Positions 39,365 through 57,682 of a stretch of 64,000 nt of DNA are shown here, one piece after another (the stretch's first letter is position 1; each line of letters opens with the position of its first letter). The stretch is from Paracoccaceae bacterium (lineage in GTDB: Bacteria; Pseudomonadota; Alphaproteobacteria; Rhodobacterales; Rhodobacteraceae). The stretch spans positions 232,492 through 296,491 of the forward strand of contig CBDCFL010000021.1 of the NCBI GenBank assembly GCA_965216135.1, given 5' to 3'. The translations under genes were made by a program, and so were the position numbers. The notes beneath the pieces are model-generated. The model was not told the origin of the DNA. It saw only the letters and a program-made list of their open reading frames with translations, and made no database searches.

Positions 39365-39561
39365 GGCGCAAAATAATCCTGCAAATTGGATCACATGCGC
39401 AATAATTAACGCCGATATGGGCGTATGGCCACCAATATTTTCAAAGCAATTGCACGCATCAAATGCCACAAGCGCGCCCAACTGACCTGCTCCCCGAAAA
39501 CTGGTCCATTTGAAAGGAGGATCTGTTCGCTTAATGTTCACGAGAACGAGGAGAACAGAGA

Positions 39562-39828
39562 ATGCGCAAGTCACGGTTTAGCGAAGAGCAGATTGTTCGG
39601 ATCATTCAGGAGTATGCGGCGGGTGCGAAAGTGTCCGAGTTGTGCCGTAAGCACGGTATGTCGGATGCCACCTTTTAGAAATGGAAAGCCAGGTATGGCG
39701 GCCTTCAGATTTCCGATGTCAGGCGGCTGAAAGACCTGGAATCGGAGAACGGCAAGCTGAAGAAGCTGCTGGCCGAAACCATGCTTGATAATGCTGGCCT
39801 GAAAGGGCTTCTGGCAAAAAACTTCTGA
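39562..39828 (+). pseudogene. IS3 orfA (HTH) with an in-frame TAG
   Basis: MRKSRFSEEQIVRIIQEYAAGAKVSELCRKHGMSDATF*KWKARYGG. The TAG at 39676-39678 is where relatives have Tyr. Confidence 0.8.
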
Positions 39829-39854
39829 AGCCTGCAAGCCGCCGGGAAGCAGTC

Positions 39855-40721
39855 ATGGTTCTTTGCCGTGACTATCAGTTTTCAACTCGGCGGGCCTGTG
39901 GGCTGATTGGGTTTTCCAGATCGAGTAATGAATACAGAGGAAGGCCGGATCGCCATGCGAGGATACGGGAACGGCTGGTCACGCTTTCCGGCAAACACCG
40001 ACGCTATGGCTATCGCATGTTGCATGCCAAGCTTGGCCAGGAGGGTTTCAAGGTGAACGTGAAAGTGGTGGAGCGACTTTACCGAGAGGAGCGCCTGACC
40101 CTGCGCCGCCGCAATCGCAAGAAAATCCCCAAGGGCGTGCACGAAGGTGCCTGGTGCCCGATCGCCGCCAACCAGCGGTGGAGCCTGGACTTCACCATGG
40201 ATGCGCTCGCCAACGGCAGGAAGTTCCGCACCGTCAATCTGAAAGACGACTGCACACGGGAATGTCCGGCGATTGATGTGGCCCTGTCGATCCCCGGCTC
40301 CCGTGTGGTGGAAATGCTGGAACGGGTGGCTCGTGAGCGGGGGTACCCGGATGTTCTGACCGTTGACAATGGGCCTGAACTACGAGGCCGCGCGCTTGAT
40401 GGCTGGGCAGATGATCACGGCGTGCAGCTCTACTTCATCGACCCGGGCAAGCCGACCCAGAACGCCTACATCGAAAGTTTCAACGGCCGGTTTCGCGAAG
40501 AATGCCTGAACTTGAACTGGTTCACCTCGCTGGCCGAGGCAGAAAGGATCATCGAGGACTGGCGGATCGATTACAATCAAAACCGGCCCCACTCTTCGCT
40601 GAACTATCAAACCCCGGAAGAATTTGCCGCAAACAGGCCTTTCCATAAACCGCAATGGGCAGCGACGCTTGAGCTATCTGAAGGCTCCGCGCCACCGCCC
40701 ATTGCTCACGCCGCCGAATAA
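39855..40721 (+). CDS. IS3 orfB (DDE integrase-like catalytic domain)
   Basis: YGYRMLHAKL, WSLDFT, DNGPEL, NAYIESFNGRFREECLN, YNQNRPHSSL. Confidence 0.9.
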   Translation: MVLCRDYQFSTRRACGLIGFSRSSNEYRGRPDRHARIRERLVTLSGKHRRYGYRMLHAKLGQEGFKVNVKVVERLYREERLTLRRRNRKKIPKGVHEGAWCPIAANQRWSLDFTMDALANGRKFRTVNLKDDCTRECPAIDVALSIPGSRVVEMLERVARERGYPDVLTVDNGPELRGRALDGWADDHGVQLYFIDPGKPTQNAYIESFNGRFREECLNLNWFTSLAEAERIIEDWRIDYNQNRPHSSLNYQTPEEFAANRPFHKPQWAATLELSEGSAPPPIAHAAE

Positions 40722-40781
40722 TGGCAAACAAAAGAGGAACAGAGTCTACCTAAAAGTGGCCCTCAAATTGGGGGCAGGTCA

Positions 40782-41289
40782 CGGCTGGAATTCCATGGTT
40801 CGAAGATCAGTTCAAATGGCGGATTGCTGTTGTTCCGGGAACTGGATGAAGTGCCCGGCCGGCACGACATTGCGGGTAGATTGCTGAGAGACACGCGAAC
40901 TGGCCACAATCGCCTGCACTCACTGGTCGGCCTGTTGCGCCAGTCGGTCTTTGGTCGGCTGGCCGGGTACGATGATGTGAATGATGCGGATCGTTTATCG
41001 CTTGATCCGGTAATGCGGCAGGTGGTCGGCGGACGGGCTGTGGATGCCAGGGCCGCATCCTCAAGCCAGATGGGACGGTTCGAAACCGAGGTGCTGGCAA
41101 CTTCGGATAATCGCACTGCGCTGGCTGACTTGTCAGGGCAATGGATCGACCGGATTCACGAACGCAAACCTCCCAAGTGGATCACGCTGAATATGGACAG
41201 GTCGGTCAGCCCGACCCACAGAGCGCAGGAAGACACGGCCTGGAACGGTCATTTCGGCTGCATGTGTTATCACCCGCTGTTCGTCTTCA
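40782..41289 (+). pseudogene. IS1380-family transposase, N-terminal piece (truncated at both ends)
   Basis: SSNGGLLLFRELDE...GRLAGYDDVNDADRL...WNGHFGCMCYHPLFVF is collinear with the copy at 53186-54535. The 5' end is cut by the IS3 element and the 3' end stops at codon ...FVF. Confidence 0.85.
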
Positions 41290-42405
41290 CCCGCATTCCC
41301 CAGATGGATGCCCGTTTCTTCACCCGCAGAAGCGTGATATACTCGATTATACAATGAGTTAACCGGGTTGGAGCGGGAATTTGCGAGCGAACGCGACGGG
41401 TGAAGTACAAATCGTGCCTATCCGGTTGTCACCCACACCCACTACATCTAGGGTGCTCCCAGTCGCCCGAGTAAAGCTCGGCGTAAGTGGGAGCGGTGAC
41501 ATCGCCAGCGATTCCGAGCAGGGACCGGAAGGCGTTGAACGGGTAGAACCGCCTGTTGAAGCGGAAGGTGAACTCGTTGAGGTAGGCTTGGAGGTGCTGG
41601 TGGCTCACGCCGTGATGAATGCCACTCAGCCACGTCTTCAGGTTGGCGAAGACGAGATGAATGATCGGCAGATACTCCTCAGCGACCTGGGAGTTGCCTC
41701 GCTCGGCGACGGCGAGGTGTTTGTAGCCGCGCTTGGCGAGGCTGGTATAGCCGGACCAATCGTCGGTGATGACCGACGCACCCGAAGTAACGGCACCCTC
41801 GACAAAGCCGCAGAGCGATTCCGCGCTGCGGTCTGGCACGACAGCGAGTCGGACACGTCCGGCGTAGCGACCGCCCTTCCGCTTATCGAGCTTGGTTCCC
41901 GGCTTGCGCTGTCGCACTTCAACGGCGCTGGCGACAAGAAGCTTGTGGTGAACGCCCCGGCCCTTGCCGCGCGTGCGGCCGCCGACCCAGGTTTCGTCGA
42001 CTTCGACATGGTCGCAGGCCTCGCTGCCGATGCGGTCCTGATCCGGCCGAACCATACCAGCGCGGAGCTTGTGGAGGATCTGAAAGGCGGTTTCGTAACG
42101 GGAAAGCCCGACCTGGCGCTGGAACTGTGTGGCAGACATGCCGGGCGTCTGGCTGGCAACCAGATAGGCCGCCCAGAACCATACGCCCAGCGACGTATGG
42201 GAGCGCTCCATGACCGTCCCCGCCGTCAGCCCGGTGTCGCGGCGGCACTTTCGACAGCGCAGGACGCCGGGCCGGCTGGTGAAGCGGAACGGCTCTGCCG
42301 CCGTCTGGCAATGGGGGCAGACGAACCCGTCACCCCACCGCGCCTTCTCCAGGTAGGCGGCACAGGCCGCGTCATCCGGGAAAAGTCGTTGAAACTCGGA
42401 AGCGA

Positions 42406-44541
42406 GGGAGCGTTAGAAATTCCGTGTCATTTCTGTAAACTGAAGAAAAGGAATGACACATGCGAGAAGAATTTGATTTTGATGTAGCTTTGGCGGCTTT
42501 GCAAGATGGCCAGGGCCTTACAGGCAAGGACGGTATTCTGACGCCGTTAGTCAAGCAACTGACCGAAGCTGCATTACAGGCTGAACTGGAGGCGCATTTA
42601 AAGGCCGACAAGTCCAGCAACCGCAGGAACGGAGCTGGCCGTAAGACCATCAAATCCACGTCTGGAAGTTTCGAACTGGCAACGCCACGAGATCGGGCTG
42701 GATCGTTTGAGCCGCAACTGGTGAAAAAACACCAGACCCACATGAGCGACGAGATCGAATGCAAGATTATTTCAATGTTCGGGCTTGGAATGAGCTATCT
42801 GGACATCGCTGGACACATCTCGGAAATCTACGGTCTGGATGTTTCAAACGCCACGATCAGCGCCGTCACTGATAAATTGATCCCTGAAATCAAGCTCTGG
42901 CAGCAGCGGCCCCTGGACAGCCATCACCCGTTTGTTTGGCTTGATGCTATTCACTACAAGGTTAAGCAAGACGGGCGCTACGCAGCCAAAGCGGTTTACA
43001 CGGTTCTGGGGCTTAATCTTGAGGGCAGGAAGGAAATTCTTGGCCTGTATCTATCTGAAACCGAAGGTGCAAACTTCTGGCTCTCGGTGCTGACGGACCT
43101 GAACAATCGCGGCCTGCAAGACATCCTGATTGCTTGTGTCGATGGCCTCACGGGCTTTCCAGAGGCGATCAACGCGATCTTTCCCCAGACCGAAGTCCAG
43201 CTTTGTGTCATCCACCAAATCCGCAATTCTCTGAAATATGTAGCCAGCAAAAACCAGAAGGAATTCATGGCTGATCTAAAGCCGGTTTATAAGGCTGAAA
43301 CTGTGAAAGCGGCTGAAATCGCGTTGGATGCGTTAGAAGAAAAATGGGGAACTAATACCAACGGCATCAATTTCTGACTCTGTGGGGATTCCCAAATCGG
43401 TTTTGATCTGATTCAAGGTTGGCAAAGGAGGATCGCCATGCCAGCCAGTGTTCCGCTTCGTCGCGACTTTGATGCCCGACCTTCGTAAACTCGCCAGCCG
43501 TTGCAAGGATGCCCGGCAGAGCCGCCGTCTGTTGTCTCTTGCGGCGGTCTACGATGGCATGCGCCGTGGAGAGGCCGCAAGGATCGGTGGGATGGATCGC
43601 CAAACCCTGCGGGACTGGGTTCACCGGTTCAACGAAGAGGGACGGATGGCCTCACCAACCGCAAGGGCGCGGGCCGGACGCGCTACCTGAGCGATGTCCA
43701 GATGAAAGAACTTGGCGAGATTGTCGAGACCGGCCCCGATCCGGCGGTGGACTGTGTGGCAGACATCCGAGCGCGGGCAGACTGCTTGGCGAACTGGGGC
43801 CCATATCAGCGCCCGCCCGCAGCATCCCAGGCAGGATAAGCGGATCATCGAGGCGTTTAAAAAAAACTTCGCCGACACGCTCCAGGTGCATATAGCTGAC
43901 CTGCCAGCGGGAACGCCGGTGGAGATCTGGTTCCAGGACGAAGCACGCCTTGGCCAGAAGAATGGCCTGACGCGCCTGTGGGCGAGAAAGGGCACGCGCC
44001 CCCGCCAGCCGGCCGATCAGCGCTATCACAACGCCTATCTGTTCGGCGCCATCTGTCCGGCTCACGGCAAGGGGGCGGCGCTATGGGAGCGCTCCATGAC
44101 CGTCCCCGCCGTCAGCCCGGTGTCGCGGCGGCACTTTCGACAGCGCAAGACGCCGGGCCGGCTGGTGAAGCGGAACGAAAATGGGCTCTGCCGCTGGTAT
44201 AAATACCCAATCGTCATTAAATCATGGCGTAAAAAATGGCCCAATTTGTCGGTCTACTTCAAATATCCAGCTGACATTCGGCGGGTAATTTACACCACCA
44301 ACGCAATCGAGGCCGTGCATCGCCAGTTCCGAAAACTGACCAAAACCAAGGGCGCGTTTCCCAATGAAAACAGTTTGCTCAAACTGCTGTATATGGGGAT
44401 CCAGAACGCTTCAAAAAAATGGACCATGCCATTGCAAAACTGGAATTTGACTTTGTCCCAACTTTCCATCTATTTTGAGGGAAGGTTAGACGATGTCTTG
44501 GACATCTAGACTAACCCCGTGACACGGAATTCTGAACACCC
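42406..44541 (+). mobile_element. IS256-family element, copy 1, interrupted by an IS630 relic
   Basis: Ends are GGGAGCGTTAGAAATTCCGTGTCA and, reverse-complemented, GGGTGTTCAGAATTCCGTGTCA. The direct repeat TCGGAAGCGA occurs at 42396-42405 and 44542-44551. The transposase spans 42460-43355 plus 44200-44509 (…EEKWGTN / KYPIVIKSWRKKW…). Confidence 0.9.
43356..44199 (+). mobile_element. Degraded IS630-family copy C (same subtype as 49559-50720)
   Basis: Both IS termini are present. Several 1-5-nt deletions. One 77-nt segment and the whole 3' half are replaced by IS1595-derived sequence. Confidence 0.85.
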
Positions 44542-44668
44542 TCGGAAGCGACCGCGGAAACGAAAGGTCTTCGCGCTGCGGAACATCCATCCCCGCTTCG
44601 TCCGCCTCCCGAGCCACTCGACGCCACACCCTACATATAGTGGGTGTGGGTGACAACCGGATAGGCAC

Positions 44669-44833
44669 GGTTTGTTCTACGACGCAGATCTCACGGATCG
44701 CGTCAATACGCGCCATCCCTTGCCCAACCAGAACCTCAACCTGGCGCAGCTTGGTAACAATCTCTTCGGGTTTGTGCCTTTTGATTCCCATCTTTGATCC
44801 TCCATTTCCTAACTATAGGGGCGGACCAATTCA
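44669..44833 (-). mobile_element. Left end and first ~41 codons of a second IS3-family element
   Basis: Minus-strand IR TGAATTGGTCCGCCCC..., then MGIKRHKPEEIVTKLRQVEVLVGQGMARIDAIREICVVEQT, cut by IS1595. Confidence 0.7.
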
Positions 44834-44844
44834 TTGGGGGAGGA

Positions 44845-45054
44845 TCACGCGTCGACAGCGTGCTCGTCTATGTCAAAACACCATGATACTTTGTTGCCGT
44901 CTCGGTCCAGATATTCTGGCCAGGTGACAACGAACTCCGCATTACGCTGTTCCAGCTTTGCCAGACGCGCCTCGGAGCGCGGGATAGGCGGCGCGCGGCA
45001 GTCTGCTCGCTGATCTCCGCCGAGTCCGAGTTCTTCGTCCTGACAAGCGTCCAC
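44845..45054 (-). CDS. Small hypothetical protein (69 codons, GTG start), last gene of the cargo operon
   Basis: ORF on the operon strand with a protein-like C-terminal half (EARLAKLEQRNAEFVVTWPEYLDRDGNKVSWCFDIDEH). A competing frame (44868-45086) starts at an ATG overlapping the upstream stop. I cannot decide between them by eye. Confidence 0.3.
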   Translation of the reverse strand: MDACQDEELGLGGDQRADCRAPPIPRSEARLAKLEQRNAEFVVTWPEYLDRDGNKVSWCFDIDEHAVDA

Positions 45055-45085
45055 GAAACCGGGTGCCGGTCGGAAGAATCAGTCA

Positions 45086-46102
45086 TCAACCATAGTGATC
45101 TTCTTCTTCATCGACCGTAAGTTCGGCTCGGGTCGTGACGTCGCCGGCCACATCGATGGTGTTTTGATAAGCAACGTATGTGAACCCAGAAACGTGGAGC
45201 TTGTACGTGCCTTTGGTCACCTTGACCTTGGCCACCCCATTCTCGTCGGTGAGAGCCCTGTACGGATGCAGAAGGACGTGCACGCCCTTGATCGGGGTGT
45301 GCTTTTGGGCGTCGAACGCCTCGACCGTCACTTCGTAGTCCGGGGCGCCGACCACCTTGACCCCGAAGGGGAACGCGCCGGCAGCGTGCGGGAACTCCGA
45401 GTCCGACTGGGCCTCCCAGGCACCGGACTTCAGCTCCCACTTGTAGTCGCCGACGGCACCGGGAGCCTCCACTTCCACCTCGGCGTAGTACAGCGCCGTC
45501 GTGCCCGGCCACGGCTCGTCGACGAGGGTCGTGGTGGCGACCTCGGCACCCTCGTGGTCGACGACGGTCAGCGCCTTGCCGGCGAGCTTGCAGCCCTGGG
45601 AGCATTTCAAGCCGACCTTCAGCTTGAAGCGCTCGCCGGCGACGATCGCCGACGCCATGCCCCAGACGTTCAAGCGCGCGGCGTGGGCGTTGACCGTGAA
45701 GGAGAACTTGGCGGCGGTCTCCTCGTGCGAGACGCCGTTCTTTTCAACCGCTGGCAGCACCGCCCGATAGGTGTGCTCGCCCGGCTTGCCCGGCACCTTC
45801 ACGACGATGTCGGTGGCGTAGTCGTACTCCTCGTGCGCGTCTTCGTCGTCATCGTCGTCATCGTCGGCCTCGTCGTGCCGGTCCTCGTCCTCCTCGGCGT
45901 CCTCCGGTTCTGCCAGCTCGGCGGTCGCGACCTCGTTGTCGTACTCGTCCCGGATCGAGACGCTTTGCCCCGTCAGGTCGTCGCCGAACGGGCAGGCGAC
46001 CCAGACCGTCAGGGTGAGCTCGGCACCGGCATCGACCTCGCCGGGCGAGACATCGACCGTGCACTTGCGCTGACCGTGCGCCGCGACTTCGTCTGCTGCC
46101 AT
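45086..46102 (-). CDS. Hypothetical acidic multi-domain protein (Ig-like repeats, 30-residue D/E run, C-terminal CarboxypepD_reg-like beta-sandwich)
   Basis: GGAGGA lies 9 nt upstream of the ATG at 46102. The ORF-track GTG at 46111 is too close to the SD. No signal peptide. The C-terminus YEVTVEAFDAQKHTPIKGVHVLL...DENGVAKVKVTKGTYKLHVSGFTY resembles carboxypeptidase-regulatory-like folds. Confidence 0.75.
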   Translation of the reverse strand: MAADEVAAHGQRKCTVDVSPGEVDAGAELTLTVWVACPFGDDLTGQSVSIRDEYDNEVATAELAEPEDAEEDEDRHDEADDDDDDDEDAHEEYDYATDIVVKVPGKPGEHTYRAVLPAVEKNGVSHEETAAKFSFTVNAHAARLNVWGMASAIVAGERFKLKVGLKCSQGCKLAGKALTVVDHEGAEVATTTLVDEPWPGTTALYYAEVEVEAPGAVGDYKWELKSGAWEAQSDSEFPHAAGAFPFGVKVVGAPDYEVTVEAFDAQKHTPIKGVHVLLHPYRALTDENGVAKVKVTKGTYKLHVSGFTYVAYQNTIDVAGDVTTRAELTVDEEEDHYG

Positions 46103-46270
46103 GTTGTTCACTCCTCCGAAACTCCGAACGCGAGATTATGCGCCACCGGCCCGCCGAAAAAGGGGTGACAGAGCGCCAACCGAGGCCTGACGCGGCCCGG
46201 CTGGGGCGCTGCCCTCGGGACATCGGAACGCCCGGGCTAGGTGACCCGGGCGTTCCGCTTCTCGGTGGGC

Positions 46271-46302
46271 AATACCGGGGGGGGGCCGGCCCCCCCGGTA
46301 TT
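46271..46302. repeat. G/C-homopolymer palindrome AATACC-G9-CCGG-C7-GGTATT
   Basis: Read directly from the sequence. It lies in the 227-nt spacer between the flavoprotein stop (46330) and the next gene's start (46102). Confidence 0.9.
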
Positions 46303-46329
46303 CTCGGTCGGTTTCTTAGGCCCGCCCGT

Positions 46330-48402
46330 TCACACCGCGTTGGTGCCGGCCATGTAGCCGTGGACGGCCGCGCGCCCAATGCCGTGCATCATGCCACCTC
46401 CACTTGCCTCGCCACCTGCATAGAGGCCCGGGACGACCTGGCCTTCGGTGTCCACGACCTGGGCCTTGCCGTTGATCCTGAGGCCCCCATAGGAATCGCC
46501 AACGTACATCGGCGCTATAAGCGCGTAGAAGGGCGGCGTGTCGATCCTGTGCATGACCGGCTTCTCGAAGTCGTCGTCCATGCCCGCGTCGGCAAACCCG
46601 TTGAACTTGGCCACCGTTTCTTCAAGATACTTGAGAGGCATAGTCTGATATGGGTTCCCAGTGGCTAGTCTAGCCAGTTCGGCCAGCGTATCGGCCTGGA
46701 AGAAATATCCGTCGGGCGGATCGGCGATATAGGGATACCGCAACTCCCACCCTCCCCGCTCCACCGCGGCCGCGTCGAAGATCGCCCACACCGGTCCCGA
46801 CGAGTAGGTTGGTGCCCGCGAACCCTCGTTCATCGCCAAGGCCGCATCCGAAGCAGAGGTCCTCGAATAAGCCGCCTTGATGTGCTCGACACTCGCGTTG
46901 CGCCAATCCAGCGGGACCCACGGGTCGCGGGTGTTGGATTGCCCCCCCCCCCCGGGGCCGGAATACCTGGCAGCGGTGGTACCATCATCTGGAATAGCCA
47001 TCTCGTTGTAGAACCTCTGCCCGACCTGGTTGACCGTGATCACATTTTCCCATCCGCTGTTGCCGATACTGACACCCCAGGACCGTCCGAACAGGAATCC
47101 GGGGTGTCCGGGGAAGATCTGCGTCGTCGCCTGGGTCGCCAGTATGTTTCTTATTCCGGGAGTAGCGTCGTAAAAGTAGTTATGCATCATGCCGGCGAGG
47201 TTCGCGCCGATTCTCATGCCGGCGATGATCCCGCTGCCGTCCATGCTGAGAGGTCCGACATCGTTGTTACCCGAATACCCGATCGACGGCTCTGTCATTC
47301 GCGGATCGAACATCGTGCGGAGTTGCACATTGCCGTGCATGCCGCCGGTGCCGATGATGACGGCCCGTCTTGCCCGGATGTAGATCGTGTCGGCGCGCTC
47401 GTCGACATTGCCGTTCTGCCAGAAGCTTTCCAGACGCTCGCCGGTCTCGGGGTTGAACCGCGGCGTGTAGCTCGCCCGGACGCCCACAACCCTGCCGGAC
47501 AAAGGCTGCTCGCGGATGATCTCGTCCAGATGCCGGTTGACCATGAACTGGACGCCCTTCTCGCGGGCGCTGAACTCGAGCGGCCGGGCGATCGTGAAGC
47601 CGCCGAAAACCCATCCGGGGGCACCTACCTCTTCCGCCGGGTTGCCGGGGATCCTACGCATCGGATTGAACGGCGAGTGGCGCTCGGCAGCGGGGTCGCC
47701 CCGGTCCTCCGGCGACAGGGTTCCGGCCCTGATGTCGGTGACGTCGGCGAGCTTCATGATGGCGCGCGCGGACCGGCCGCGGCTCATGCCGCCGCCGCTA
47801 TGGGTGCCATTGATTCGCGCATACCGGACATAGTTGTCCATCGTGAATTGCCTGGTTGCGGCGGCGTTATCCGCCCAGCCACGATGCAGTCCTCGGTCAT
47901 TGTGTCGGTAGTAAGGGGTACCCGCATTGGTTACGACCGACCAGTCGGTCATGTCTTGGAAGAGCCGGTCGGGGTCATCTTCCAGGTCTTCGGGCGGGAC
48001 CAGCGGTTCGGTCAGCCCCATGCCGTCGGGGTCGGCGGCCATGCGGTCGCGTTCCTGGATGGCGTCCCCGCCGCCGTAGGACGACCAGCCGCCGCTGTGC
48101 AAGAGCTTCCCGCCGACGTCGAAGTTCGCGTCGATCACAAGCACTGAGGCTCCGAGATCGCGTGCCCTGATAGCGGCAGGCAGCCCCGTACACCCCGACC
48201 CACAGACAACAATATCCACTTCGTAGTCCCAGCGAATGTCAGCAACGGTCGACTGCGCCTGGGCCTTGCCCGGCGCCGACAGGACGGCCGCCCCGGCACC
48301 AGCGGCAGCTCCTGCCTTGACGAAATCTCGCCTACTGAGGGCTGCTGGGGTGCCTTCGTCCTGAGGCGCTCGTCTTTTCCGGCTCTTGTGCTTCTTCGTC
48401 AT
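46330..48402 (-). CDS. Tat-exported FAD-dependent oxidoreductase (FAD_binding_2 / fumarate-reductase-KstD-like flavoprotein)
   Basis: Twin-arginine signal SRRDFVKAGAAAGAGAAVL...AQA. Dinucleotide fold DIVVCGSGCTGLPAAIRARDLGASVLVID. C-terminal VPGLYAGGEASGG. Strong SD GGAGGA. Confidence 0.9.
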   Translation of the reverse strand: MTKKHKSRKRRAPQDEGTPAALSRRDFVKAGAAAGAGAAVLSAPGKAQAQSTVADIRWDYEVDIVVCGSGCTGLPAAIRARDLGASVLVIDANFDVGGKLLHSGGWSSYGGGDAIQERDRMAADPDGMGLTEPLVPPEDLEDDPDRLFQDMTDWSVVTNAGTPYYRHNDRGLHRGWADNAAATRQFTMDNYVRYARINGTHSGGGMSRGRSARAIMKLADVTDIRAGTLSPEDRGDPAAERHSPFNPMRRIPGNPAEEVGAPGWVFGGFTIARPLEFSAREKGVQFMVNRHLDEIIREQPLSGRVVGVRASYTPRFNPETGERLESFWQNGNVDERADTIYIRARRAVIIGTGGMHGNVQLRTMFDPRMTEPSIGYSGNNDVGPLSMDGSGIIAGMRIGANLAGMMHNYFYDATPGIRNILATQATTQIFPGHPGFLFGRSWGVSIGNSGWENVITVNQVGQRFYNEMAIPDDGTTAARYSGPGGGGQSNTRDPWVPLDWRNASVEHIKAAYSRTSASDAALAMNEGSRAPTYSSGPVWAIFDAAAVERGGWELRYPYIADPPDGYFFQADTLAELARLATGNPYQTMPLKYLEETVAKFNGFADAGMDDDFEKPVMHRIDTPPFYALIAPMYVGDSYGGLRINGKAQVVDTEGQVVPGLYAGGEASGGGMMHGIGRAAVHGYMAGTNAV
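46942..46953 (-). repeat. G12 (coding-strand) homopolymer inside the flavoprotein gene
   Basis: Twelve consecutive C on the plus strand, encoding GGGG in ...YSGPGGGGQSN.... Confidence 0.95.
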
Positions 48403-48945
48403 GTCCGTTCCTCCGTAGTATCTCCGCCGTTAAGTGTTGCTGGCCGATGAACGGGTACTTGGCAACGAATCCCGAACCGGCTTCCGGTTCAGAGAGACCT
48501 TCGCGACCGCTGGCCAACGTGGCTCGCACGGAAACGGCATCACCGTGCCAACCGATTCTGTAAGTCTTTTAGCGGGTTACTCTCAGTTTTACCGCTGATA
48601 GAAACCGCAGGTCTTCAGGTTAACATGTGATTTAATATTCCGCAAGTGTCGGTAACAGACAATCGCGCTCCAATCTGCGCGGGCACCTTGGACGGTCCCC
48701 GGTAGTCTAACCGGCCGCCGGATCGTGCGAGCGGAAACATATCGGACCGCCACCCAAGTCCGCTCCCCGGGAAGCGAGCGCAAGACCACCGATGTCAGCC
48801 GTTTTCCGAATCGCGAGAGCTGAAGCGCAGAAAAAGCGTACCTGTCAGTGAGATCCGCGGGGCACCTTTCCCGGCCGCCATCCCCGCGCGCGAATTGGCG
48901 CCCGGTTTTGGCGCGTGGGAAGGCGGTCTGCCATGACCGGCGCGG

Positions 48946-49413
48946 CTAGTTCTGGACGATCTCCCCCAGCAAATAGTCGACCAGAGCCTCGATCTCGTCG
49001 GCGTCAAATGCTCCGGACACTACCGTCCCTGCCGGCGCCGGGCCGAGCTCGAGCTCGTAGCAGGCGGTCTCTGTGTAGGCCCCGGCAAGCCATGCCGGCA
49101 TTGGCGTCTCTGGCCGCCCGCAGCTGATCAATTCTATCAGTTGGTCGCGGTCCAATTCGGTTGACCGTACACTCGGGCCGGTCGCCTGCTCGCTACCGGC
49201 ACCGCCGTGGCCGCCGTGTCCCGAACGGCCATGGCAACCGGCGCATCCTCCCCCATGCCAAAACTGTTTGCCCACTTCCGCCGCATCCTGCGCGAACGCC
49301 GGCGCAGGCATGGCCAGGAAGGCGACGACCGCCAGCCCTACTATCCCCGCGCGTCGGGTCTTATGCGATGTACCTTGCCGATTTCGTCCGATTTCGTTCG
49401 TTTCCGAGTTCAT
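48946..49413 (-). CDS. Class I c-type cytochrome, secreted
   Basis: Sec signal ...AMPAPAFAQD, heme motif CAGCH and a distal PMPAW Met. Start taken at ATG 49413. Confidence 0.85.
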   Translation of the reverse strand: MNSETNEIGRNRQGTSHKTRRAGIVGLAVVAFLAMPAPAFAQDAAEVGKQFWHGGGCAGCHGRSGHGGHGGAGSEQATGPSVRSTELDRDQLIELISCGRPETPMPAWLAGAYTETACYELELGPAPAGTVVSGAFDADEIEALVDYLLGEIVQN

Positions 49414-49558
49414 ATCAAACAACCCTTTTCAAACCACCCTTTTTGGCGAAAGACCGAGGGGCCGGCGAGAGGCGAAACCAGCCACAATCGCCCCTTCTGT
49501 ATCAGAAGCGGCATGAGACAGCCATGAAAATCACGAGGAAGAAATGCGAAATCCGTTA

Positions 49559-50720
49559 TACCAACGGCATCAATTTCTGACTCTGTGGGGATTCCCAAAT
49601 CGGTTTTGATCTGATTCAAGGTTGGCAAAGGAGGATCGCCATGCCAGCCAGTGTTCCGCTTCGTCGCGACTTTGATGCCCGCCACCTTCGTAAACTCGCC
49701 AGCCGTTGCAAGGATGCCCGGCAGAGCCGCCGTCTGTTGTCTCTTGCGGCGGTCTACGATGGCATGCGCCGTGGAGAGGCCGCAAGGATCGGTGGGATGG
49801 ATCGCCAAACCCTGCGGGACTGGGTTCACCGGTTCAACGAAGAGGGACCGGATGGCCTCACCAACCGCAAGGGCGCGGGCCGGACGCGCTACCTGAGCGA
49901 TGTCCAGATGAAAGAACTTGGCGAGATTGTCGAGACCGGCCCCGATCCGGCGGTGGACGGGGTTGTCCGCTGGCGGCGGATCGACCTGAAGCGGGTGATC
50001 GAGGCGCGCTTTGGCGTCATCTATTCCGAGCGCGGGATATCCAGACTGCTTGGCGAACTGGGCTTTGCCCATATCAGCGCCCGCCCGCAGCATCCCAGGC
50101 AGGATAAGCGGATCATCGAGGCGTTTAAAAAAAACTTCGCCGACACGCTCCAGGTGCATATAGCTGACCTGCCAGCGGGAACGCCGGTGGAGATCTGGTT
50201 CCAGGACGAAGCACGCCTTGGCCAGAAGAATGGCCTGACGCGCCTGTGGGCGAGAAAGGGCACGCGCCCCCGCCAGCCGGCCGATCAGCGCTATCACAAC
50301 GCCTATCTGTTCGGCGCCATCTGTCCGGCTCACGGCAAGGGGGCGGCGCTCATGCTGCCTTGGGCGGACGCGCAAGCCATGCAGATGCATCTCGACGAGA
50401 TCAGCCGCCACGTCGCCCGAAAGGCCCATGCGGTTGTGCTGATGGATCGGGCCGGATGGCACACCACCGGCAAACTCAAAGTCCCGAAGAACCTCACCAT
50501 CATCCTGCTGCCATCGCGCGCTCCGGAACTGAACCCGGTGGAAAATATCTGGCAGTACTTGCGCGCCAATTGGCTCTCCAACCGCGTGTTCGAAGACTAC
50601 AATGCCATCGTCGATGCTGGATGCGAAGCTTGGAACAAGCTCATCGCACAGCCCGAAACCATCACATCAATCGGAATGCGAAAATGGGCCCATATCGGTC
50701 AATGTTAAATGCCGCTGGTA
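49559..50720 (+). mobile_element. IS630-family element, subtype 2, copy A (1162 bp)
   Basis: IRs are TACCAACGGCATCAATTTCTGAC and, reverse-complemented, TACCAGCGGCATTTAACATTGAC. Same length as copy B, and the encoded transposases are identical. Confidence 0.93.
49641..50708 (+). CDS. IS630-family transposase (355 aa, intact)
   Basis: HTH half, then EIWFQDEARLGQ...MDRAGWH...ELNPVENIW DDE half in a single frame (A8 run). Confidence 0.93.
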   Translation: MPASVPLRRDFDARHLRKLASRCKDARQSRRLLSLAAVYDGMRRGEAARIGGMDRQTLRDWVHRFNEEGPDGLTNRKGAGRTRYLSDVQMKELGEIVETGPDPAVDGVVRWRRIDLKRVIEARFGVIYSERGISRLLGELGFAHISARPQHPRQDKRIIEAFKKNFADTLQVHIADLPAGTPVEIWFQDEARLGQKNGLTRLWARKGTRPRQPADQRYHNAYLFGAICPAHGKGAALMLPWADAQAMQMHLDEISRHVARKAHAVVLMDRAGWHTTGKLKVPKNLTIILLPSRAPELNPVENIWQYLRANWLSNRVFEDYNAIVDAGCEAWNKLIAQPETITSIGMRKWAHIGQC

Positions 50721-50999
50721 TTACCCAAGATCAGCAGCCTGCCGGGCTCGGTGCACATCGAGTGGAAGCGATGCGGGCGGTCCAACTGCCGCTGCCGAGC
50801 TTGAAGGCTTCATGGGCCCGACTACGCGCGCCACTGGCGTGAGGGAGGGCGGCAGAAGAAAGCCTATGTTCCGTCTGGCGATGTGCACGCCATTATACTG
50901 GTTGTCGAACTGAGGCGCGCGCTCGTTCCGGCGTGTTCCGAGATGAGAAGGCGCGTCGAGGGCTCCCTTTCCGGACAACCTCTGAGGGTCGAACGATGA
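50721..50999 (+). pseudogene. 5'-truncated small Cys-rich gene with in-frame TGA (DUF6788-like; family name from memory, unverified)
   Basis: ...SLPGSVHIEWKRCGRSNCRCRA*RLHGPDYARHWREGGRQKKAYVPSGDV.... Begins at the IS630 boundary. TGA at 50802-50804. Its final TGA overlaps the next ATG. Confidence 0.45.
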
Positions 51000-51646
51000 G
51001 CACTGCAGACAAAGCACGGGGCGCCATCGCCGAGGGATCGGTTGGAGACCATCCGCCGCCCGCGCCTTCACCTGATGAGGCTCAGCGCCGTGCCGACGAG
51101 CACGAGCGTCGGGTCCGTGACGAGATGGAGAGCCAATTTGCGCGGCTGAAGGATGAAGGCAAGGCACTGTTTGGCATGGTCGAGGGACGCCCCGGTGTGA
51201 AATCGCCACCCGAGTGGGCCAAGCGTCTCGACCAGGCCGGCGACGACATCGGCAACGGTCGCTTCGTCGTCCGTTATCTCGGCACCGAACGGTACCTCGA
51301 CGCGGAAACCGTGACGGTGCTGGTCACTCTGCGTCAGAACCTGATCGCCGAGTTGCCTCGACCGTCGACCGCCGACCTGATGATGATCGATGCGGCGATC
51401 GTCGCCTATTACAACTTCCTCCGCGTCCAGGGCTGGATCGGCAACTCGGCCCTTGTCTTCGAAGGTGAATTGTTCGGTCAGAAGCCCCTCAGCGAGATCC
51501 ACGGCGACATGGTGGGCAGCCGATTGAGGGAGCAATTGGAGCGTCTCAGCGAGGTCATCCTGCCGCTTCAGGACCGCTGCCACCGGATGATGGTGCGCAG
51601 CCTGGGACAATTGGCGAGGACGGGCGAACGGAGGCCAGCTGCATGA
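50996..51646 (+). CDS. Hypothetical protein (216 aa)
   Basis: ATGA-coupled to the preceding remnant, with a GAGGG SD-like sequence. No motif recognised. Confidence 0.5.
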   Translation: MSTADKARGAIAEGSVGDHPPPAPSPDEAQRRADEHERRVRDEMESQFARLKDEGKALFGMVEGRPGVKSPPEWAKRLDQAGDDIGNGRFVVRYLGTERYLDAETVTVLVTLRQNLIAELPRPSTADLMMIDAAIVAYYNFLRVQGWIGNSALVFEGELFGQKPLSEIHGDMVGSRLREQLERLSEVILPLQDRCHRMMVRSLGQLARTGERRPAA

Positions 51647-51787
51647 AGCGAGGCACCGGGCCTGGGGGACGTGGGTGCGGCGAGAGTCACTGACGACCGT
51701 CGGCTGGATATCCAACCCGGGGCGCAAACCGTTGTCGGTCACGTGGTTTTGACAGAGTAGCGCCAACCAAAAGAAAGGAGCGTACCC

Positions 51788-51988
51788 ATGAACCGGATCT
51801 ACGCGGCTGCATGTAGCCTCGACAACGAGGTCATTCGACTCGTTTATGTTGCCGAAGACCAGCCGGATTGGGCGCGCAAGGAGCGCCAGGAACTCGAACG
51901 GGAGTTCCGTCGGAACCCACCCGTGCTTTGGCGGTGGGTTCAACCGATCGCCGCAACACACTCTGCGAACATCTCTGCTGGCGTTTGA
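51788..51988 (+). CDS. Hypothetical small protein (66 aa)
   Basis: Good SD (AAAGGAG 7 nt upstream). The 3' end overlaps the IS30 fragment, so it may be truncated or chimeric. Confidence 0.3.
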
Positions 51989-52073
51989 TATTGCAAGGTC
52001 TTGCGTGGCCGCTCGTTCAGCTGACGTGCAATGGCGCTCAGCTTTGCCTGGGAGTGGAGAGCTAAGTCCGTTC
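51939..52073 (-). mobile_element. IS30-family transposase, C-terminal 44 codons only
   Basis: The minus strand reads [44 protein letters not shown], cut by IS1595 copy 2. Confidence 0.75.
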
Positions 52074-53185
52074 CGTGCCTATCCGGTTGTCACCCACACC
52101 CACTATATGTAGGGTGTGGCGTCGAGTGGCTCGGGAGGCGGACGAAGCGGGGATGGATGTTCCGCAGCGCGAAGACCTTTCGTTTCCGCGGTCGCTTCCC
52201 GAGTTTCAACGACTTTTCCCGGATGACGCGGCCTGTGCCGCCTACCTGGAGAAGGCGCGGTGGGGTGACGGGTTCGTCTGCCCCCATTGCCAGACGGCGG
52301 CAGAGCCGTTCCGCTTCACCAGCCGGCCCGGCGTCCTGCGCTGTCGAAAGTGCCGCCGCGACACCGGGCTGACGGCGGGGACGGTCATGGAGCGCTCCCA
52401 TACGTCGCTGGGCGTATGGTTCTGGGCGGCCTATCTGGTTGCCAGCCAGACGCCCGGCATGTCTGCCACACAGTTCCAGCGCCAGGTCGGGCTTTCCCGT
52501 TACGAAACCGCCTTTCAGATCCTCCACAAGCTCCGCGCTGGTATGGTTCGGCCGGATCAGGACCGCATCGGCAGCGAGGCCTGCGACCATGTCGAAGTCG
52601 ACGAAACCTGGGTCGGCGGCCGCACGCGCGGCAAGGGCCGGGGCGTTCACCACAAGCTTCTTGTCGCCAGCGCCGTTGAAGTGCGACAGCGCAAGCCGGG
52701 AACCAAGCTCGATAAGCGGAAGGGCGGTCGCTACGCCGGACGTGTCCGACTCGCTGTCGTGCCAGACCGCAGCGCGGAATCGCTCTGCGGCTTTGTCGAG
52801 GGCGCCGTTACTTCGGGTGCGTCGGTCATCACCGACGATTGGTCCGGCTATACCAGCCTCGCCAAGCGCGGCTACAAACACCTCGCCGTCGCCGAGCGAG
52901 GCAACTCCCAGGTCGCTGAGGAGTATCTGCCGATCATTCATCTCGTCTTCGCCAACCTGAAGACGTGGCTGAGTGGCATTCATCACGGCGTGAGCCACCA
53001 GCACCTCCAAGCCTACCTCAACGAGTTCACCTTCCGCTTCAACAGGCGGTTCTGCCCGTTCAACGCCTTCCGGTCCCTGCTCGGAATCGCTGGCGATGTC
53101 ACCGCTCCCACTTACGCCGAGCTTTACTCGGGCGACTGGGAGCACCCTAGATGTAGTGGGTGTGGGTGACAACCGGATAGGCACG
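52074..53185 (+). mobile_element. IS1595-family element, copy 2 (1112 bp, intact)
   Basis: Same ~32-bp inverted repeats as copy 1. Its flanks belong to two different ISs (IS30 and IS1380) and there is no TSD. Confidence 0.92.
52153..53169 (+). CDS. IS1595-family (ISXO2-like) transposase
   Basis: N-terminal zinc ribbon (CPHC...CRKC), then VEVDETWVGG...ITDDWSGY...NLKTWLSGIHHGVS. Start placed at MDVPQRE. Confidence 0.9.
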   Translation: MDVPQREDLSFPRSLPEFQRLFPDDAACAAYLEKARWGDGFVCPHCQTAAEPFRFTSRPGVLRCRKCRRDTGLTAGTVMERSHTSLGVWFWAAYLVASQTPGMSATQFQRQVGLSRYETAFQILHKLRAGMVRPDQDRIGSEACDHVEVDETWVGGRTRGKGRGVHHKLLVASAVEVRQRKPGTKLDKRKGGRYAGRVRLAVVPDRSAESLCGFVEGAVTSGASVITDDWSGYTSLAKRGYKHLAVAERGNSQVAEEYLPIIHLVFANLKTWLSGIHHGVSHQHLQAYLNEFTFRFNRRFCPFNAFRSLLGIAGDVTAPTYAELYSGDWEHPRCSGCG

Positions 53186-54535
53186 GTACAAACAAGCCCT
53201 CTTCGGTTCCAATTCGACTGCTCGGTCAAGGTCGCGTTCCGTGGATCGTCGATCAGTTCGGACGGCGGGCTATTGCTCCACCGCGAGTTGGACGACGCCC
53301 TCGGGCTGACGGACATGGCGGCGGGGCTGATCACCGATCCGCGCACTGGCCGGAATGGCCGCCACAATCTCGCCGGCCTTCTGCGCCAATCGGTTTTCCC
53401 ACGCCTTGCCGGCTATGAGGACGTCAACGACGCCGACCGACTGTGCCGTGATCCGGTGATGCGCCAACTCATCGGTGGACGTGCGGTGAAGCGGGGTGCG
53501 GCGTCGGCCAGCGCCATGGGTCGGTTCGAGACGAAGATGCTGACCCGACCGGAGAACCTCGCCGCCCTCGCTGATCTGCCCGGCCGCTGGATCGACGCGG
53601 TGCATGACCGGAGGCCGCCGAAGAGCATCACGCTGGATATGGACAGCTCCGAGAGCCCTGTGCATGGCGATCAGGAAGGTGCAATGTGGAACGGGCATTT
53701 CCAATCCAAGTGCCTGCACCCACTGTTCGTGTTCAACCAGTTCGGCGATCTGGAGCGATGTGCGCTGCGTCCCGGCAATGTCCACAGCGCCGATGGCCGG
53801 GAGGATGTGCTGCGCCCGGTGCTGGCAAGATATTCGAGCGACACGCGACCCTCGATCACCCGGCGCTATTTCCGAGGTGACGCCGCCTTTGCCATCCCTA
53901 CGCTGTTCGATCTCCTGGAGGCCGAGGGCTGGGGTTACGCCATCCGGATCAAGGGCAACAGCAAGCTCTATGAGCGGATTTCCCGGCTGCTGCGGCGCAG
54001 GCCGGGTCGGCCGTCGCACACGGTGATCCGCACCTGCACCAGCTTCCAGTATCAGGCGGGGAGCTGGGTGAAGCCGCGCCGGGTGGTGTCCAGGGTCGAG
54101 TTCCATCCGGGCGGGTTGTTCCCGCGCGTGGGCTTCATCGTCACCAATCGCAGCCTGCCCAATGAGCGGGTGCCGGCGTTCTACAACGGCTGGGGCACAG
54201 CCGGGCAGCACATCAAGGAAGGCAAGTACGCGCTGAAGTGGACGCGGCTTTCCTGCATGCGCTTTGCCGCCAACGCCGTCCGGCTACAGCTTCATGCCCT
54301 CGCCTACAATCCGGCGAACTTCCTGCGCACGCCAGCGACGCCCAGCGAGATCGAGACATGGTCACTGACCTCTTTGCGCGAACGGCTGATCAAGACCGGT
54401 ACGCGGCTGGGGCGCCATGGCCGCTACGCCATCTTCCAGATGGCCGAGGCGGCACTGCCGCGGCAAGTGTTCGCCGGGATTCCTGGCCTGATCAACGGGC
54501 TGCGCGATCCGCCTGCCGCAACAGGGTGCACATGA
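53186..54535 (+). pseudogene. IS1380-family transposase lacking its own start codon
   Basis: SSDGGLLLHRELDD...GYEDVNDADRL...WNGHFQSKCLHPLFVFNQFGDLERC...GTAGQHIKEGK. The ORF-track start at 53096 lies inside IS1595. Confidence 0.85.
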
Positions 54536-54757
54536 CCAGAAACCCGCCCAGATCGGCTAAATCCAACGCTGGTGACAGGAAAGGTGTGTCCGAAAACGCG
54601 TCGAGAGACGCCTTAAGCGGTCGGATCGGCCTGTTTGGTCGTGCTATCCGGCCGGCACGCAGCACCACACGCGGATCGGAGGCAGAAATCGCCTGGAAAG
54701 TCGCCTTCGGTTGCTTTAGCCTCACGGGAGGCAAGCCAAATGGAGAATGCCGGGTTA
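53186..54757 (+). mobile_element. IS1380-family element, nearly full length but 5'-truncated by IS1595
   Basis: The left IR and first codons are missing. The right end (…TGGAGAATGCCGGGTTA) aligns with 57544-57560 of the other IS1380. Confidence 0.85.
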
Positions 54758-55632
54758 TGCTTTCCACCTCTCTGAAATCAGTTTTACATCACGCTAGATA
54801 CTTCCCTTTGTGGTCGGCGCTTACTGTTTTTCGCTGGCGCACCTTTGATTTGCGGTCCCGTGGTTTGGGCACAACTTTTGGAACGGTCATGCGTTGGTTT
54901 CCGCCTGCAAGAAGCCGATTTGACCGCGAAGCAAAACGAGTTTTTCCCAATATGAAGCGCAGCGCGCGCGGGAAGCTTGGTCAAAATATGGGCAGGCATA
55001 TGGGGCGAACACTTTTTGAGATATACCACGATGCTGAATTTCAAACGCAACACCACAAATTCAGAAGCTCTGGCCCCGGCCTTGCCGCCCTGAAAGAGGC
55101 GAACGCAGCTGGTAAAGGGGCGATTATTGTTTCCGGCCATTTTGGGCAATGGGAAGCAGTTCGCGCCGTGATCAAATTGCACGGGATGGAAAGCGGAGGC
55201 GTCTATCGCCCCCATAAAAATCGCCATTACGCACGCCGAATTCTTGCTGGTATCGAAGCGGGGGGAAAACCGATTTTGGCAACCGGCCACGTTGGTACTA
55301 GGGCCCTTGTGCGTCATCTGCGGGATGGCGGCATTATTTCTATCTTGTTAGATGAAAAATATCCGGAAGGTGTACGGATACCGTTTCTTGGTCTTGACGC
55401 CCTCACATCTCTCTCCCCTGCCCAGCTTGCACTCAAATACGATCTGCCCATGATCCCTGCTTATGGTATTCGCATTGATGACGGGAACGCATTTCGAGTG
55501 GAATTCGAAGCCCCAATCCCCCACACCGACAGCATCACCATGACCCGTGCCTTTAATGACAGTCTATCTGCGCGGATCCTAGCAGACCCAGAACAGTGGT
55601 ATTGGATGCTGAGACGTTGGGACGGTGTTTGA
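54757..55632 (+). CDS. Lipid A biosynthesis lauroyl/LpxL-family acyltransferase
   Basis: IVSGHFGQWE (HX4E-type acyltransferase motif) and ILLDEKYPEGVRIPFLG. A sampled 60-nt line (54781-54840) is 50% G+C. The A of the ATG is the last base assigned to IS1380. Confidence 0.75.
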   Translation: MLSTSLKSVLHHARYFPLWSALTVFRWRTFDLRSRGLGTTFGTVMRWFPPARSRFDREAKRVFPNMKRSARGKLGQNMGRHMGRTLFEIYHDAEFQTQHHKFRSSGPGLAALKEANAAGKGAIIVSGHFGQWEAVRAVIKLHGMESGGVYRPHKNRHYARRILAGIEAGGKPILATGHVGTRALVRHLRDGGIISILLDEKYPEGVRIPFLGLDALTSLSPAQLALKYDLPMIPAYGIRIDDGNAFRVEFEAPIPHTDSITMTRAFNDSLSARILADPEQWYWMLRRWDGV

Positions 55633-55792
55633 AGGTCGGCATAGCCCTGCGATTTCAACCGGTCGACGCAACACTTTAACGTATGCGTCCGGCGTCGCCG
55701 ACCTTGCGGATTTTCTGACACCTGAGAGTCTTACGCTTCGATAGCGGGCGATGGTGCCCACTATCGATGGTGGACACTATCGGGGATCATCG

Positions 55793-56152
55793 ATGGCGAG
55801 GAAGCGGCGGCGTCGGATCTGGGAAGACGATGAGAAGCGCCGGATCGTGGCGCAGACGCGGGTGCCGGGGGTCTCGGTTTCTCAGGTTGCGCGTCGTTAT
55901 GACGTGAACGCCAACATGGTTTTCAAATGGCTTCGCGATCCACGGTTCATGCCGTCGGCAGATGATCTTCCGTCGTTCTTGCCGGTCGAGGTTCTGCCCG
56001 ACGCTTCACCTGGCGCAGCCATGGCGAATGGCGATGCCGTCGCCTCGGACAGCAGGATCGAGATCACATTGTCCAACGGTCTCAGTCTCTGCGTGAGTGG
56101 CGGTTTTGATCCTGACGCGGTGTCGCGCCTTGTGCGCGGCCTGGCGACATGA
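55793..56152 (+). CDS. IS66-family accessory protein TnpA
   Basis: [40 protein letters not shown]. Confidence 0.85.
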
Positions 56153-56496
56153 TCCCGGTTCCGGCATCGACGAAGATCTGGCTTGCGGGCGGTGTGACGG
56201 ACATGCGCAAGGGGTTTGTCGGCTTGTCATCTCTGGCTGAGGCGGTTCTTCGCCAAGACCCGTATTCCGGTCATCTGTTTGTTTTCCGGGGTCGTCGCGG
56301 CGATCTGATCAAGGTGATCTGGTGGGACGGCCAAGGCGCGTGCCTGTTCTCCAAGCGGTTAGAGCGCGGACGGTTCGTCTGGCCGTCGATTGCGGCTGGC
56401 AAGCTGACGATCAGCCCGGCGCAGCTGGCGATGTTGCTGGAAGGCATAGACTGGCGAGCGCCGCTGCGAACATGGCGCCCACTGACGGCTGGATAG
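56149..56496 (+). CDS. IS66-family TnpB
   Basis: [18 protein letters not shown]...[37 protein letters not shown]. The tnpC gene that should follow is absent. Confidence 0.9.
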
Positions 56497-56563
56497 AGTG
56501 AGAAAGCCAACAATAAAGGGCTGATTGAGCGCCTTCGGGATTCCCTTGATCGGCGTCATCGGC

Positions 56564-57560
56564 TCTTCAATCAGTTTGGTCATCTTGAACGCTGCGCTCT
56601 GCGGCCCGGCAATGTGCACAGTGCGGATGGTTGGAAAGACGTTCTGAAGTCGGTCATGGCGCGATATGCAGATCGCCACCTGATGCGGTTCTTCCGAGGT
56701 GACGCCGCCTTCGCCATCCCGGACCTCTACGGGATGCTCGAAGCGGAGAGCTGTTTCTATGCCATCCGGCTCCGCACCAATCGTGTTCTTCAGGGCAGGA
56801 TTGCGCATCTGCTCAAGCGCCCTGTGGGCCGTCCGCCCAACCATGTGCGACGCACCTGCGGCGACTTCCAATATCAGGCTGCGTCCTGGGACAAACCCCG
56901 TCGTGTCATCGCCAAGGTGGAATGGCATCCGGGTGAATTGTTCCCGAGGGTTGGTTTTGTCGTTACCAATATGCCAATGGAGGCAGACTGGATCATTCAG
57001 TTCTACAATCAGCGTGGCACCGCTGAGCAGCACATCAAAGAGGGAAAGCAGGCAATCAACTGGACGCGCCTGTCCTGCAAGGGCATGGCGCAGAACGAGG
57101 TCCGCCTTCAGCTTCACGCACTGGCCTACAATCCCGGTGTCTTCCTGCAAGGCACTGATCTGCCCGGGGAGATAGCCGACTGGTCGCTGACCAGCCTGCA
57201 GACACGACTGATCAAAACCGGCGCGAGGGTCGTCCGCCACGCCCGCGCCATTACCTTCCAGCTTGCCGAGGTTGCGGTCAGCGGAAATTTGTTCAACCGC
57301 GTCCTTGCCGCCATCCAAAGGCTACGCGCGCCACCGGTTCCAACATGACGGTGTCAGCGGCAAAACCTGAAGAAAAGCGGCTCGGCTAGTTTGTTCCAAC
57401 CGCTGTTGATCAGGCTGAAAGCTGCGTCAAACCAGCCGCTGAGGGCAGAAACCTCGCTAGGATGCCAAATCCACAGCACAGCGAAACCGAAAGGCTTGAT
57501 CATGGCCCAAATTGGTTGAGGCATACAGAAGATGGCCTTCTACTTGGGGAATGTCGGTTA
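56564..57560 (+). pseudogene. IS1380-family transposase C-terminal piece plus right end; partner of 40782-41289
   Basis: (L)FNQFGHLERCALRPGNVHSADGW...GTAEQHIKEGK...RLRAPPVPT* (stop at 57348). It begins at exactly the codon where the N-terminal piece ends. Confidence 0.85.
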
Positions 57561-57682
57561 AGTGCATTCCGAATATTTTTGCTTCATTTTATAGTATATA
57601 AACGAAATTACTGCAAGAAAAACAAACAGTTATCCCGTATCTGCAAATCTAAACTCCTGTATTCGCCGCAAGTTATGGCTTA

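Follow-up and report, generated by a model that had tools for sequence, protein, structure and literature searches.

An ISx2-led transposition unit splits an IS1380-family element in a Paracoccaceae genome and recurs at two further loci

The window considered here is a 64,000-nucleotide stretch of DNA from a Paracoccaceae bacterium, positions 232492-296491 of contig C21 in a 4.12-Mb genome of 24 contigs (G000). Within it lies an insertion sequence (IS) of the IS1380 family, which we call ISx1, that is broken into two pieces of the same orientation. The N piece (40782-41289, forward strand) corresponds to bp 157-664 of ISx1 and to positions 25-175 of PF13701, the IS1380-type transposase model. 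Its reading frame ends ...CYHPLFVF, and its last bases, CTTCA, occupy 41285-41289. The C piece (56565-57557, forward strand) corresponds to bp 660-1652 of ISx1 and to positions 177-434 of the same model. It starts with CTTCA at 56565-56569, its frame begins (L)FNQFGHLERC..., and it closes with the right inverted repeat of ISx1, ...GGGGAATGTCGG. Between the two pieces lie a second IS1380-family element, named ISx2, a gene of the lipid A biosynthesis acyltransferase family, and the 5' fragment of an IS66-family element, together with a large block that is bounded by two IS1595 copies and sits inside ISx2. The entity that splits ISx1 is a discrete, repeatedly transposed unit with intact ends, which had been left unidentified in a preliminary description of this DNA, or else was thought to have had its ends remodelled.

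Copies of ISx1 were located by BLAST of the window pieces against the bacterium's own genome. The full element is 1,652 bp long, with the termini CTCGCATTCCCCAAGTA ... TACTTGGGGAATGTCGG. Two uninterrupted copies are present, one at C15:32172-33823 and one on the minus strand of C23 (~90958->87717); the latter holds an unrelated 1.6-kb insert, and the ISx1 copy itself is flanked by a clean 5-bp duplication, CTAAG. Both copies read across the break. The window pieces abut in them, and the sole overlap is the short repeat. This alignment to an intact copy had been named beforehand as a test, and its outcome bears out the claim that the two pieces are one contiguous IS1380-family copy. The N piece is 98.2-98.6% identical to the C15 and C23 copies, and the C piece is 99.9% identical. 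Rejoining the window pieces restores the frame, as had been proposed, and yields an open frame of 428 codons, 420 of which agree with the C15 transposase. The C15 copy scores 361.5 bits against NF033539, the NCBI model for IS1380 (cut-off 180), and ISx1 has ~74% DNA identity to ISPme1-type elements on plasmids. The N piece is less than the full N-terminal half for which it had been taken, as the first 156 bp of ISx1 are absent from it. It is cut at an IS3-family element (39483-40781, forward strand) with rve and HTH_21 domains and 9-10 copies in the genome, which adjoins ISx1 position 157. The window ISx1 is a dead copy, cut in two by the unit that ISx2 leads.

ISx2 is ~1,683 bp long and has the termini CCCGCATTCCCCAGATGG ... 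CCAAATGGAGAATGCCGG. Its first 123 bp occupy 41290-41412 (forward strand) and include the left inverted repeat CCCGCATTCCCCAGATGG. The remainder (53186-54753, forward strand) contains the IS1380-family transposase gene and the right inverted repeat ...CCAAATGGAGAATGCCGG. The transposase scores 341.6 bits against NF033539, where the cut-off is 180, and 393 bits against PF13701. The stretch of 122 bp that directly follows the left break (41290-41411) has 10 copies in the genome, every one of which is an ISx2 left terminus. The right end of ISx2 was set by comparing these 10 copies. Seven of the ten use the genuine right end, and plain copies carry a 5-bp repeat directly past it (TTTAG on C15, TTGAT on C18, GGTAC on C23, and (A)TTCAA on C1). 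Outside this genome, the right terminus was found at nine distinct metagenome sites, where it is followed by A/T-leaning pentamers and at none of which (0/9) it is followed by the acyltransferase gene. Nine such varied sites indicate that ISx2 is a real and widespread IS. The IS1380 family duplicates 4-5 bp of its target according to the ISfinder family description, and the target duplications here include CTAAG for ISx1 on C23 and TTTAG, TTGAT and GGTAC for ISx2. Both elements have the form of the family, being ~1.65-1.7 kb long with short imperfect terminal inverted repeats. The same 1.46-kb insertion is present at the equivalent of 54613-54616 in four ISx2 copies (C15, C18, C23, and the unit on C22 described below), which suggests either a hot spot for nested ISs or the spread of an already interrupted ISx2. 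An identical ISx2 left flank was seen on contigs C1 and C24; duplication or redundant contigs are possible.

The transposition unit spans 41290-56564 (forward strand) and consists of ISx2, the acyltransferase gene and the IS66 5' fragment. It measures 15,275 bp in the window and ~3,494 bp after later inserts are removed. The ends of the unit recur at two further loci, C22:356119->351159 and C17:182197->175319, and these sister units are 99.4-99.9% identical to the window unit. At all three loci the left terminus is the ISx2 left repeat, directly adjoining the left direct repeat. None of the three copies has a repeat past the ISx2 right end (54753 in the window). Instead, all three continue past that end through a shared 924 bp and then a shared 887 bp (1,811 bp), and they all stop at one base, ...CATCGGCT. 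Each copy is flanked by a 5-bp direct repeat of its own: CTTCA/CTTCA in the window, GTAAT/GTAAT on C22, and TGTAC/TGTAA on C17. For the window unit, the intact ISx1 copies represent the empty site; on C22, an open frame of at least 340 codons reappears once the flanks are joined and one repeat is removed. The three occurrences support the earlier view that the break arose by a single insertion with a short duplication. They also reverse the roles then assigned, as the "second IS1380", regarded as a passenger, is the probable driver of the unit, and its left repeat is the left terminus.

The size of the duplication at the ISx1 break could also be refined. The hexamer TCTTCA does occur at both breakpoints (41284-41289 and 56564-56569), as had been noted, and a duplication of 5-6 bp had been proposed. 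The unit ends in the T at 56564, which is found in full-length IS66 and in both sister units as well. Because this T belongs to IS66 and the unit, the true duplication is the 5 bp CTTCA, and the sixth matching base is a coincidence. A microhomology-mediated deletion at the right junction was rejected, as a single base (T) is all that IS66 has in common with the ISx1 side.

The right end of the unit lies within an IS66-family element. The fragment (55678-56564, forward strand) comprises the first 887 bp of that element, namely its left end, tnpA, tnpB and 68 bp more, with TnpB_IS66 and HTH_Tnp_1 domains. The unit ends where this element is cut, 11 bp ahead of the tnpC start. A single full-length IS66 of the same type is present in the genome, at C22:481959; it runs past the unit end point into TnpC, the ATG of which lies 11 bp past the end of the unit, and is interrupted further on. 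This copy was considered as a fourth, truncated unit and rejected, as TnpC follows the shared end point and the IS66 is of full length. Since the C22:481959 element continues into TnpC, the right end of the unit is an internal position of IS66 rather than an IS terminus. The preliminary description had found no matching inverted repeats at the two inner boundaries. That observation holds, and the explanation for it is that the right end lies inside IS66, probably as a surrogate, and resembles the ISx2 repeat no more than background sequence does. A motif of ~30-36 bp at 55644-55679, just ahead of the IS66 left end, recurs often in the related genomes G015 and G014 and could represent a REP-like repeat. 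A 3.4-kb nest of ISs is inserted at the same spot in the C17 unit, at the equivalent of 55670-55678.

The gene carried by the unit (54757-55632, forward strand) is complete and encodes 291 amino acids. Its product is a member of the acyltransferase superfamily, scoring 130 bits against PF03279, for which the cut-off is 22. An LpxL-like role is putative, as the best NCBIfam equivalog gives 83 bits against a cut-off of 273 and all such models score below their cut-offs. The segment has 52% G+C vs 59.7% for the genome. Across Rhodobacteraceae and Paracoccaceae, homologues with 66-92% identity are found as ordinary genes of the chromosome. In the related genome G015, DNA similarity to the cargo starts at 54756, exactly at the IS boundary. 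In its own genome the gene is limited to the three units, besides one paralogue of 44% identity. The ATG lies 3 nt past the ISx2 right end, and transcription of the gene would therefore have to start inside ISx2. A far-reaching reading of these data would be that a conserved lipid A acyltransferase-family gene survives solely as a three-copy IS cargo, presumably transcribed from the IS, and that the unit is a selected device for gene dosage or gene rescue in an envelope function. By the same reading, the fixed end between tnpB and tnpC of IS66, which does not resemble a repeat, would point to an end-recognition rule of IS1380 elements beyond terminal-repeat similarity. We regard this as speculative and rather improbable.

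The greater part of the distance between the ISx1 pieces is taken up by the IS1595-bounded block (41413-53185; 11,773 bp), which lies inside ISx2. The block begins with an IS1595 copy on the reverse strand (41413-44669), interrupted by an IS256 that contains an IS630 relic, and ends with an intact copy on the forward strand (52074-53185). The DNA between them is single-copy at 44681-49550 and 50735-52060, where a cytochrome c, a Tat flavoprotein and other proteins are encoded, and an IS630 occupies ~49555-50730. The outer flanks of the block form an 8-bp repeat with one mismatch, GTACAAAT/GTACAAAC, which corresponds to ISx2 bp 116-123. The left copy, GTACAAAT, is the last 8 bp of 41290-41412. 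The inner flanks, GTTTGTTC and GTCCGTTC, differ from each other. Perfect 8-bp repeats flank 36 of 38 other full IS1595 copies in the genome, and the target preference is loose, G-W-W-C-W-W-W-C. Four plain ISx2 copies also have one IS1595 at this site, in one orientation or the other. ISx2 bp 116-123 looks like a hot spot for IS1595, and the block behaves as a composite transposon at a preferred IS1595 site. It resembles composite transposons in having two inverted IS1595 copies that bound an inner block, with one 8-bp duplication around the whole. The outer 15.3-kb insert has one IS end and one non-IS end and is therefore no composite transposon. Formation of the block by inversion between two IS1595 copies was rejected because the 8-bp repeat in the outer flanks is direct and the inner flanks do not match its reverse complement. 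Integration of a circle was rejected because the two IS1595 copies are inverted.

The timing of the block bears on whether the whole insert entered ISx1 at once. The block has an 8-bp duplication of its own within ISx2 and is absent from both sister units (C22 and C17), and the DNA unique to it occurs once in the genome. These facts make a separate and later insertion the likelier order. The opposite possibility is that the unit already carried the 11.8-kb block when it entered ISx1, so that all 15.3 kb came in one step. The window itself does not show which of the two insertions came first, and the IS1595 repeat GTACAAAT/GTACAAAC has one mismatch while CTTCA is perfect, so the IS1595 event could be the older one. 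This has to be set against two sister units that lack the block and are nearly identical to the window unit, and against block DNA that exists once in the genome. Were the unit to move by copying, which is reported for ISPme1 modules (PMC9330008), a 15.3-kb donor would also be expected, and none is present. One-step entry seems unlikely to us, although it deserves to be entertained. The preliminary description had proposed that everything between the halves, "or its precursor", entered as one unit. Entry of the entire 15.3 kb is improbable, as the sister units lack the IS1595 block and measure ~3.5 kb once later inserts of their own are discounted, and it is the hedge about a precursor that has stood.

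Taken together, the data suggest that a unit of the ISEcp1/ISPme1 type, led by ISx2, split ISx1, that it exists in three copies, and that the IS1595 block came separately. We put the probability of this reading at roughly 85%. The proposed course of events is as follows. ISx2 would at one time have been situated 3 nt upstream of the acyltransferase gene, with IS66 just downstream of the gene. The ISx2 transposase would have paired its genuine left end with a surrogate right end 1.8 kb downstream, at IS66 position 887. Such a "one-ended" move would have produced a 3.5-kb unit of ISx2, the acyltransferase gene and the IS66 fragment. This unit would then have transposed at least three times in the genome, with a 5-bp target duplication each time. 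One copy would have entered ISx1 at bp 660-664, splitting the transposase between ...PLFVF and NQFG... and duplicating CTTCA. Separately, and most likely afterwards, the 11.8-kb IS1595 composite would have entered its preferred target GTACAAAC at ISx2 bp 116-123, leaving the ISx1 halves 15.3 kb apart. What was observed directly is that the halves are contiguous, that the unit has common ends and is flanked by direct repeats at three loci, that the empty sites can be restored, and that the end point in IS66 is internal. The ISx2 transposase as the mover, the recognition of a surrogate end and the order of events are what we infer from this.

Several observations weigh against this reading, the first of which concerns ISx1 itself. 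Mismatches to the intact copies number 9/508 in the N piece and 1/1119 in the C piece (p = 2e-4), which makes the mismatch density of the N piece ~20x that of the C piece. Seven of the eight amino-acid differences from the C15 transposase fall in the N piece, including a D->N change in the conserved LDMD motif. The 3' flank of the C piece (57558-57682, forward strand; an IS630 starts at 57683) also adjoins the intact C15 copy. These features could mean that the pieces derive from two different ISx1 copies juxtaposed by recombination or deletion, with the repeat being due to chance or microhomology. However, a regional asymmetry of the same kind exists between the intact C15 and C23 copies (p = 0.017). 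It is read for this reason as a property of the IS lineage, and two source copies were rejected as its explanation. Furthermore, both breakpoints fall at the same ISx1 position, and they are the exact ends of a unit that has the same ends, with 5-bp repeats of its own, at two unrelated loci. An origin from two copies is scarcely credible. At the C15 locus, which is otherwise unique, ISx1 and ~121-125 bp of its 3' flank are duplicated (C15:33824-33948), and the flanks of the C15 ISx1 are TGTAG on the left and (T)AGTAG on the right. ISx1 itself may have moved with adjacent 3' DNA as a small module.

Further objections arise from the unit. Its direct repeat on C17 has one mismatch (TGTAC/TGTAA). 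This unit lies within an IS21-family istA, at a near-palindromic site, and has diverged most of the three, which agrees with its single repeat mismatch. The IS21 copy has ~42 extra bp around the insertion (C17:182198-182213 and 175290-175318) when compared with related IS21 copies; the extra bases form the near-palindrome TGCATGTAC / TGTAAACATGCA, and a 1-bp deletion lies upstream. A donor locus, which would combine ISx2, the gene and a full-length IS66, was not found in the genome. A donor was also sought through synteny with the neighbours of the gene in G015 and Candidatus Rhodobacter oscarellae, which have no counterparts in G000. The search of relatives and plasmids that had been recommended did not recover the segment: the unit is absent from 40 related genomes, and the plasmid records contain no unit, their sole matches being ISPme1-like and to the ISx1 C piece. 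The junction between ISx2 and the acyltransferase gene had no metagenome match. Moreover, a scan of 54450-55750 for the sigma-70 consensus, which has little power in an alphaproteobacterium, gave no outward match.

The right end provides the remaining objections. It matches the ISx2 inverted repeat at 8/18 positions, and 277/2,365 downstream positions (~12%) score at least as high. In addition, a single end point of this kind, the equivalent of 56564, is seen among the 10 ISx2 copies, whereas ISEcp1 and ISPme1 give variable ones. Variable end points are a characteristic of the phenomenon and not of any single unit, and the same ISEcp1 unit has been found repeatedly with one end point (PMC6061673). 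The unit could be real and yet have moved in another way, either through the ISx1 transposase acting in trans or by way of a genuine right terminus that has decayed. Besides the lack of convincing similarity between the right end and the ISx2 right inverted repeat, the similar termini of ISx1 and ISx2 (CTCGCATTCCCCAAGTA and CCCGCATTCCCCAGATGG) would agree with this, as would the TCGG that precedes the terminal ...CT of the unit, as at the ISx1 right end. Against another mover stand a left end that is exactly the ISx2 terminus and 5-bp repeats that match those of plain ISx2 copies. The surrogate ends of ISEcp1 are likewise only weakly similar to the genuine repeat (PMC6061673). We consider a different mover quite improbable.

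The IS load of this genome is extreme. One IS630 is present in ~105 copies and another IS, of 1.17 kb, in ~91, followed by ~42 copies of IS1595 and 10-13 copies each of several others. With hundreds of IS copies, including those of IS630 and IS1595, a contig could have been mis-joined through them, and the split ISx1 would then be an assembly artefact. However, both ISx1 junctions are unique sequence and not repeat-to-repeat joins, the 5-bp duplication is precise, and two further loci have the same architecture. An artefact at the break is therefore very unlikely, and a mis-join within the IS1595 pair is harder to exclude.

An "unidentified" 15-kb insertion can now be given a probable ordered history, in which an IS captured a gene, spread with it to three sites and then received a nested composite transposon. 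The locus is a genomic example of one-ended gene capture by an IS1380-family element outside clinical resistance, with three independent insertion sites and reconstructed empty sites. It indicates that a conserved envelope-biosynthesis gene can end up solely as IS cargo. It also calls for caution in annotation, where the "second IS1380", its LpxL-like cargo and the truncated IS66 should be recorded together as a single mobile unit. This route of gene movement was already known from ISEcp1 and ISPme1. Knowledge of the mechanism is unchanged, and to a specialist the case is an ordinary one.

Single copies of IS1380-family elements are known to mobilise 3'-adjacent DNA with 5-bp repeats (PMC9330008, PMC3281130, PMC6061673). 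The ISEcp1 units, such as ISEcp1-blaCMY-2 and ISEcp1-blaCTX-M (PMC6061673), resemble the unit described here in several respects. Each has a single IS1380-family copy at its left, the right repeat of which is kept internally. Each contains 3'-adjacent DNA with a complete gene just past the IS and ends at a non-IS sequence. The same unit is found at varied sites, each with its own A/T-leaning 5-bp direct repeat (PMC6061673). The differences are that ISx2 is a distant member of the family in a Rhodobacteraceae-type genome, and that the cargo is a lipid A acyltransferase-family gene in place of a resistance gene. In addition, the right end here lies inside IS66 and has no convincing inverted-repeat similarity, and an outward promoter was not detected.

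The transposable modules (TMos) of ISPme1 and IS1247a in Paracoccus are also built on alphaproteobacterial IS1380-family elements that mobilise 3'-adjacent DNA (PMC3281130, PMC9330008). A strong outward promoter is reported for ISPme1, whereas the sigma-70 scan found none in the ISx2 unit. The TMos were obtained by experimental capture, and their end points vary. In contrast, the ISx2 unit has one fixed end point in three copies and is documented by genomic evidence alone. Finally, the presumed driver here, ISx2, is not the ISPme1-like element of this locus; that element is ISx1, the one that was split.

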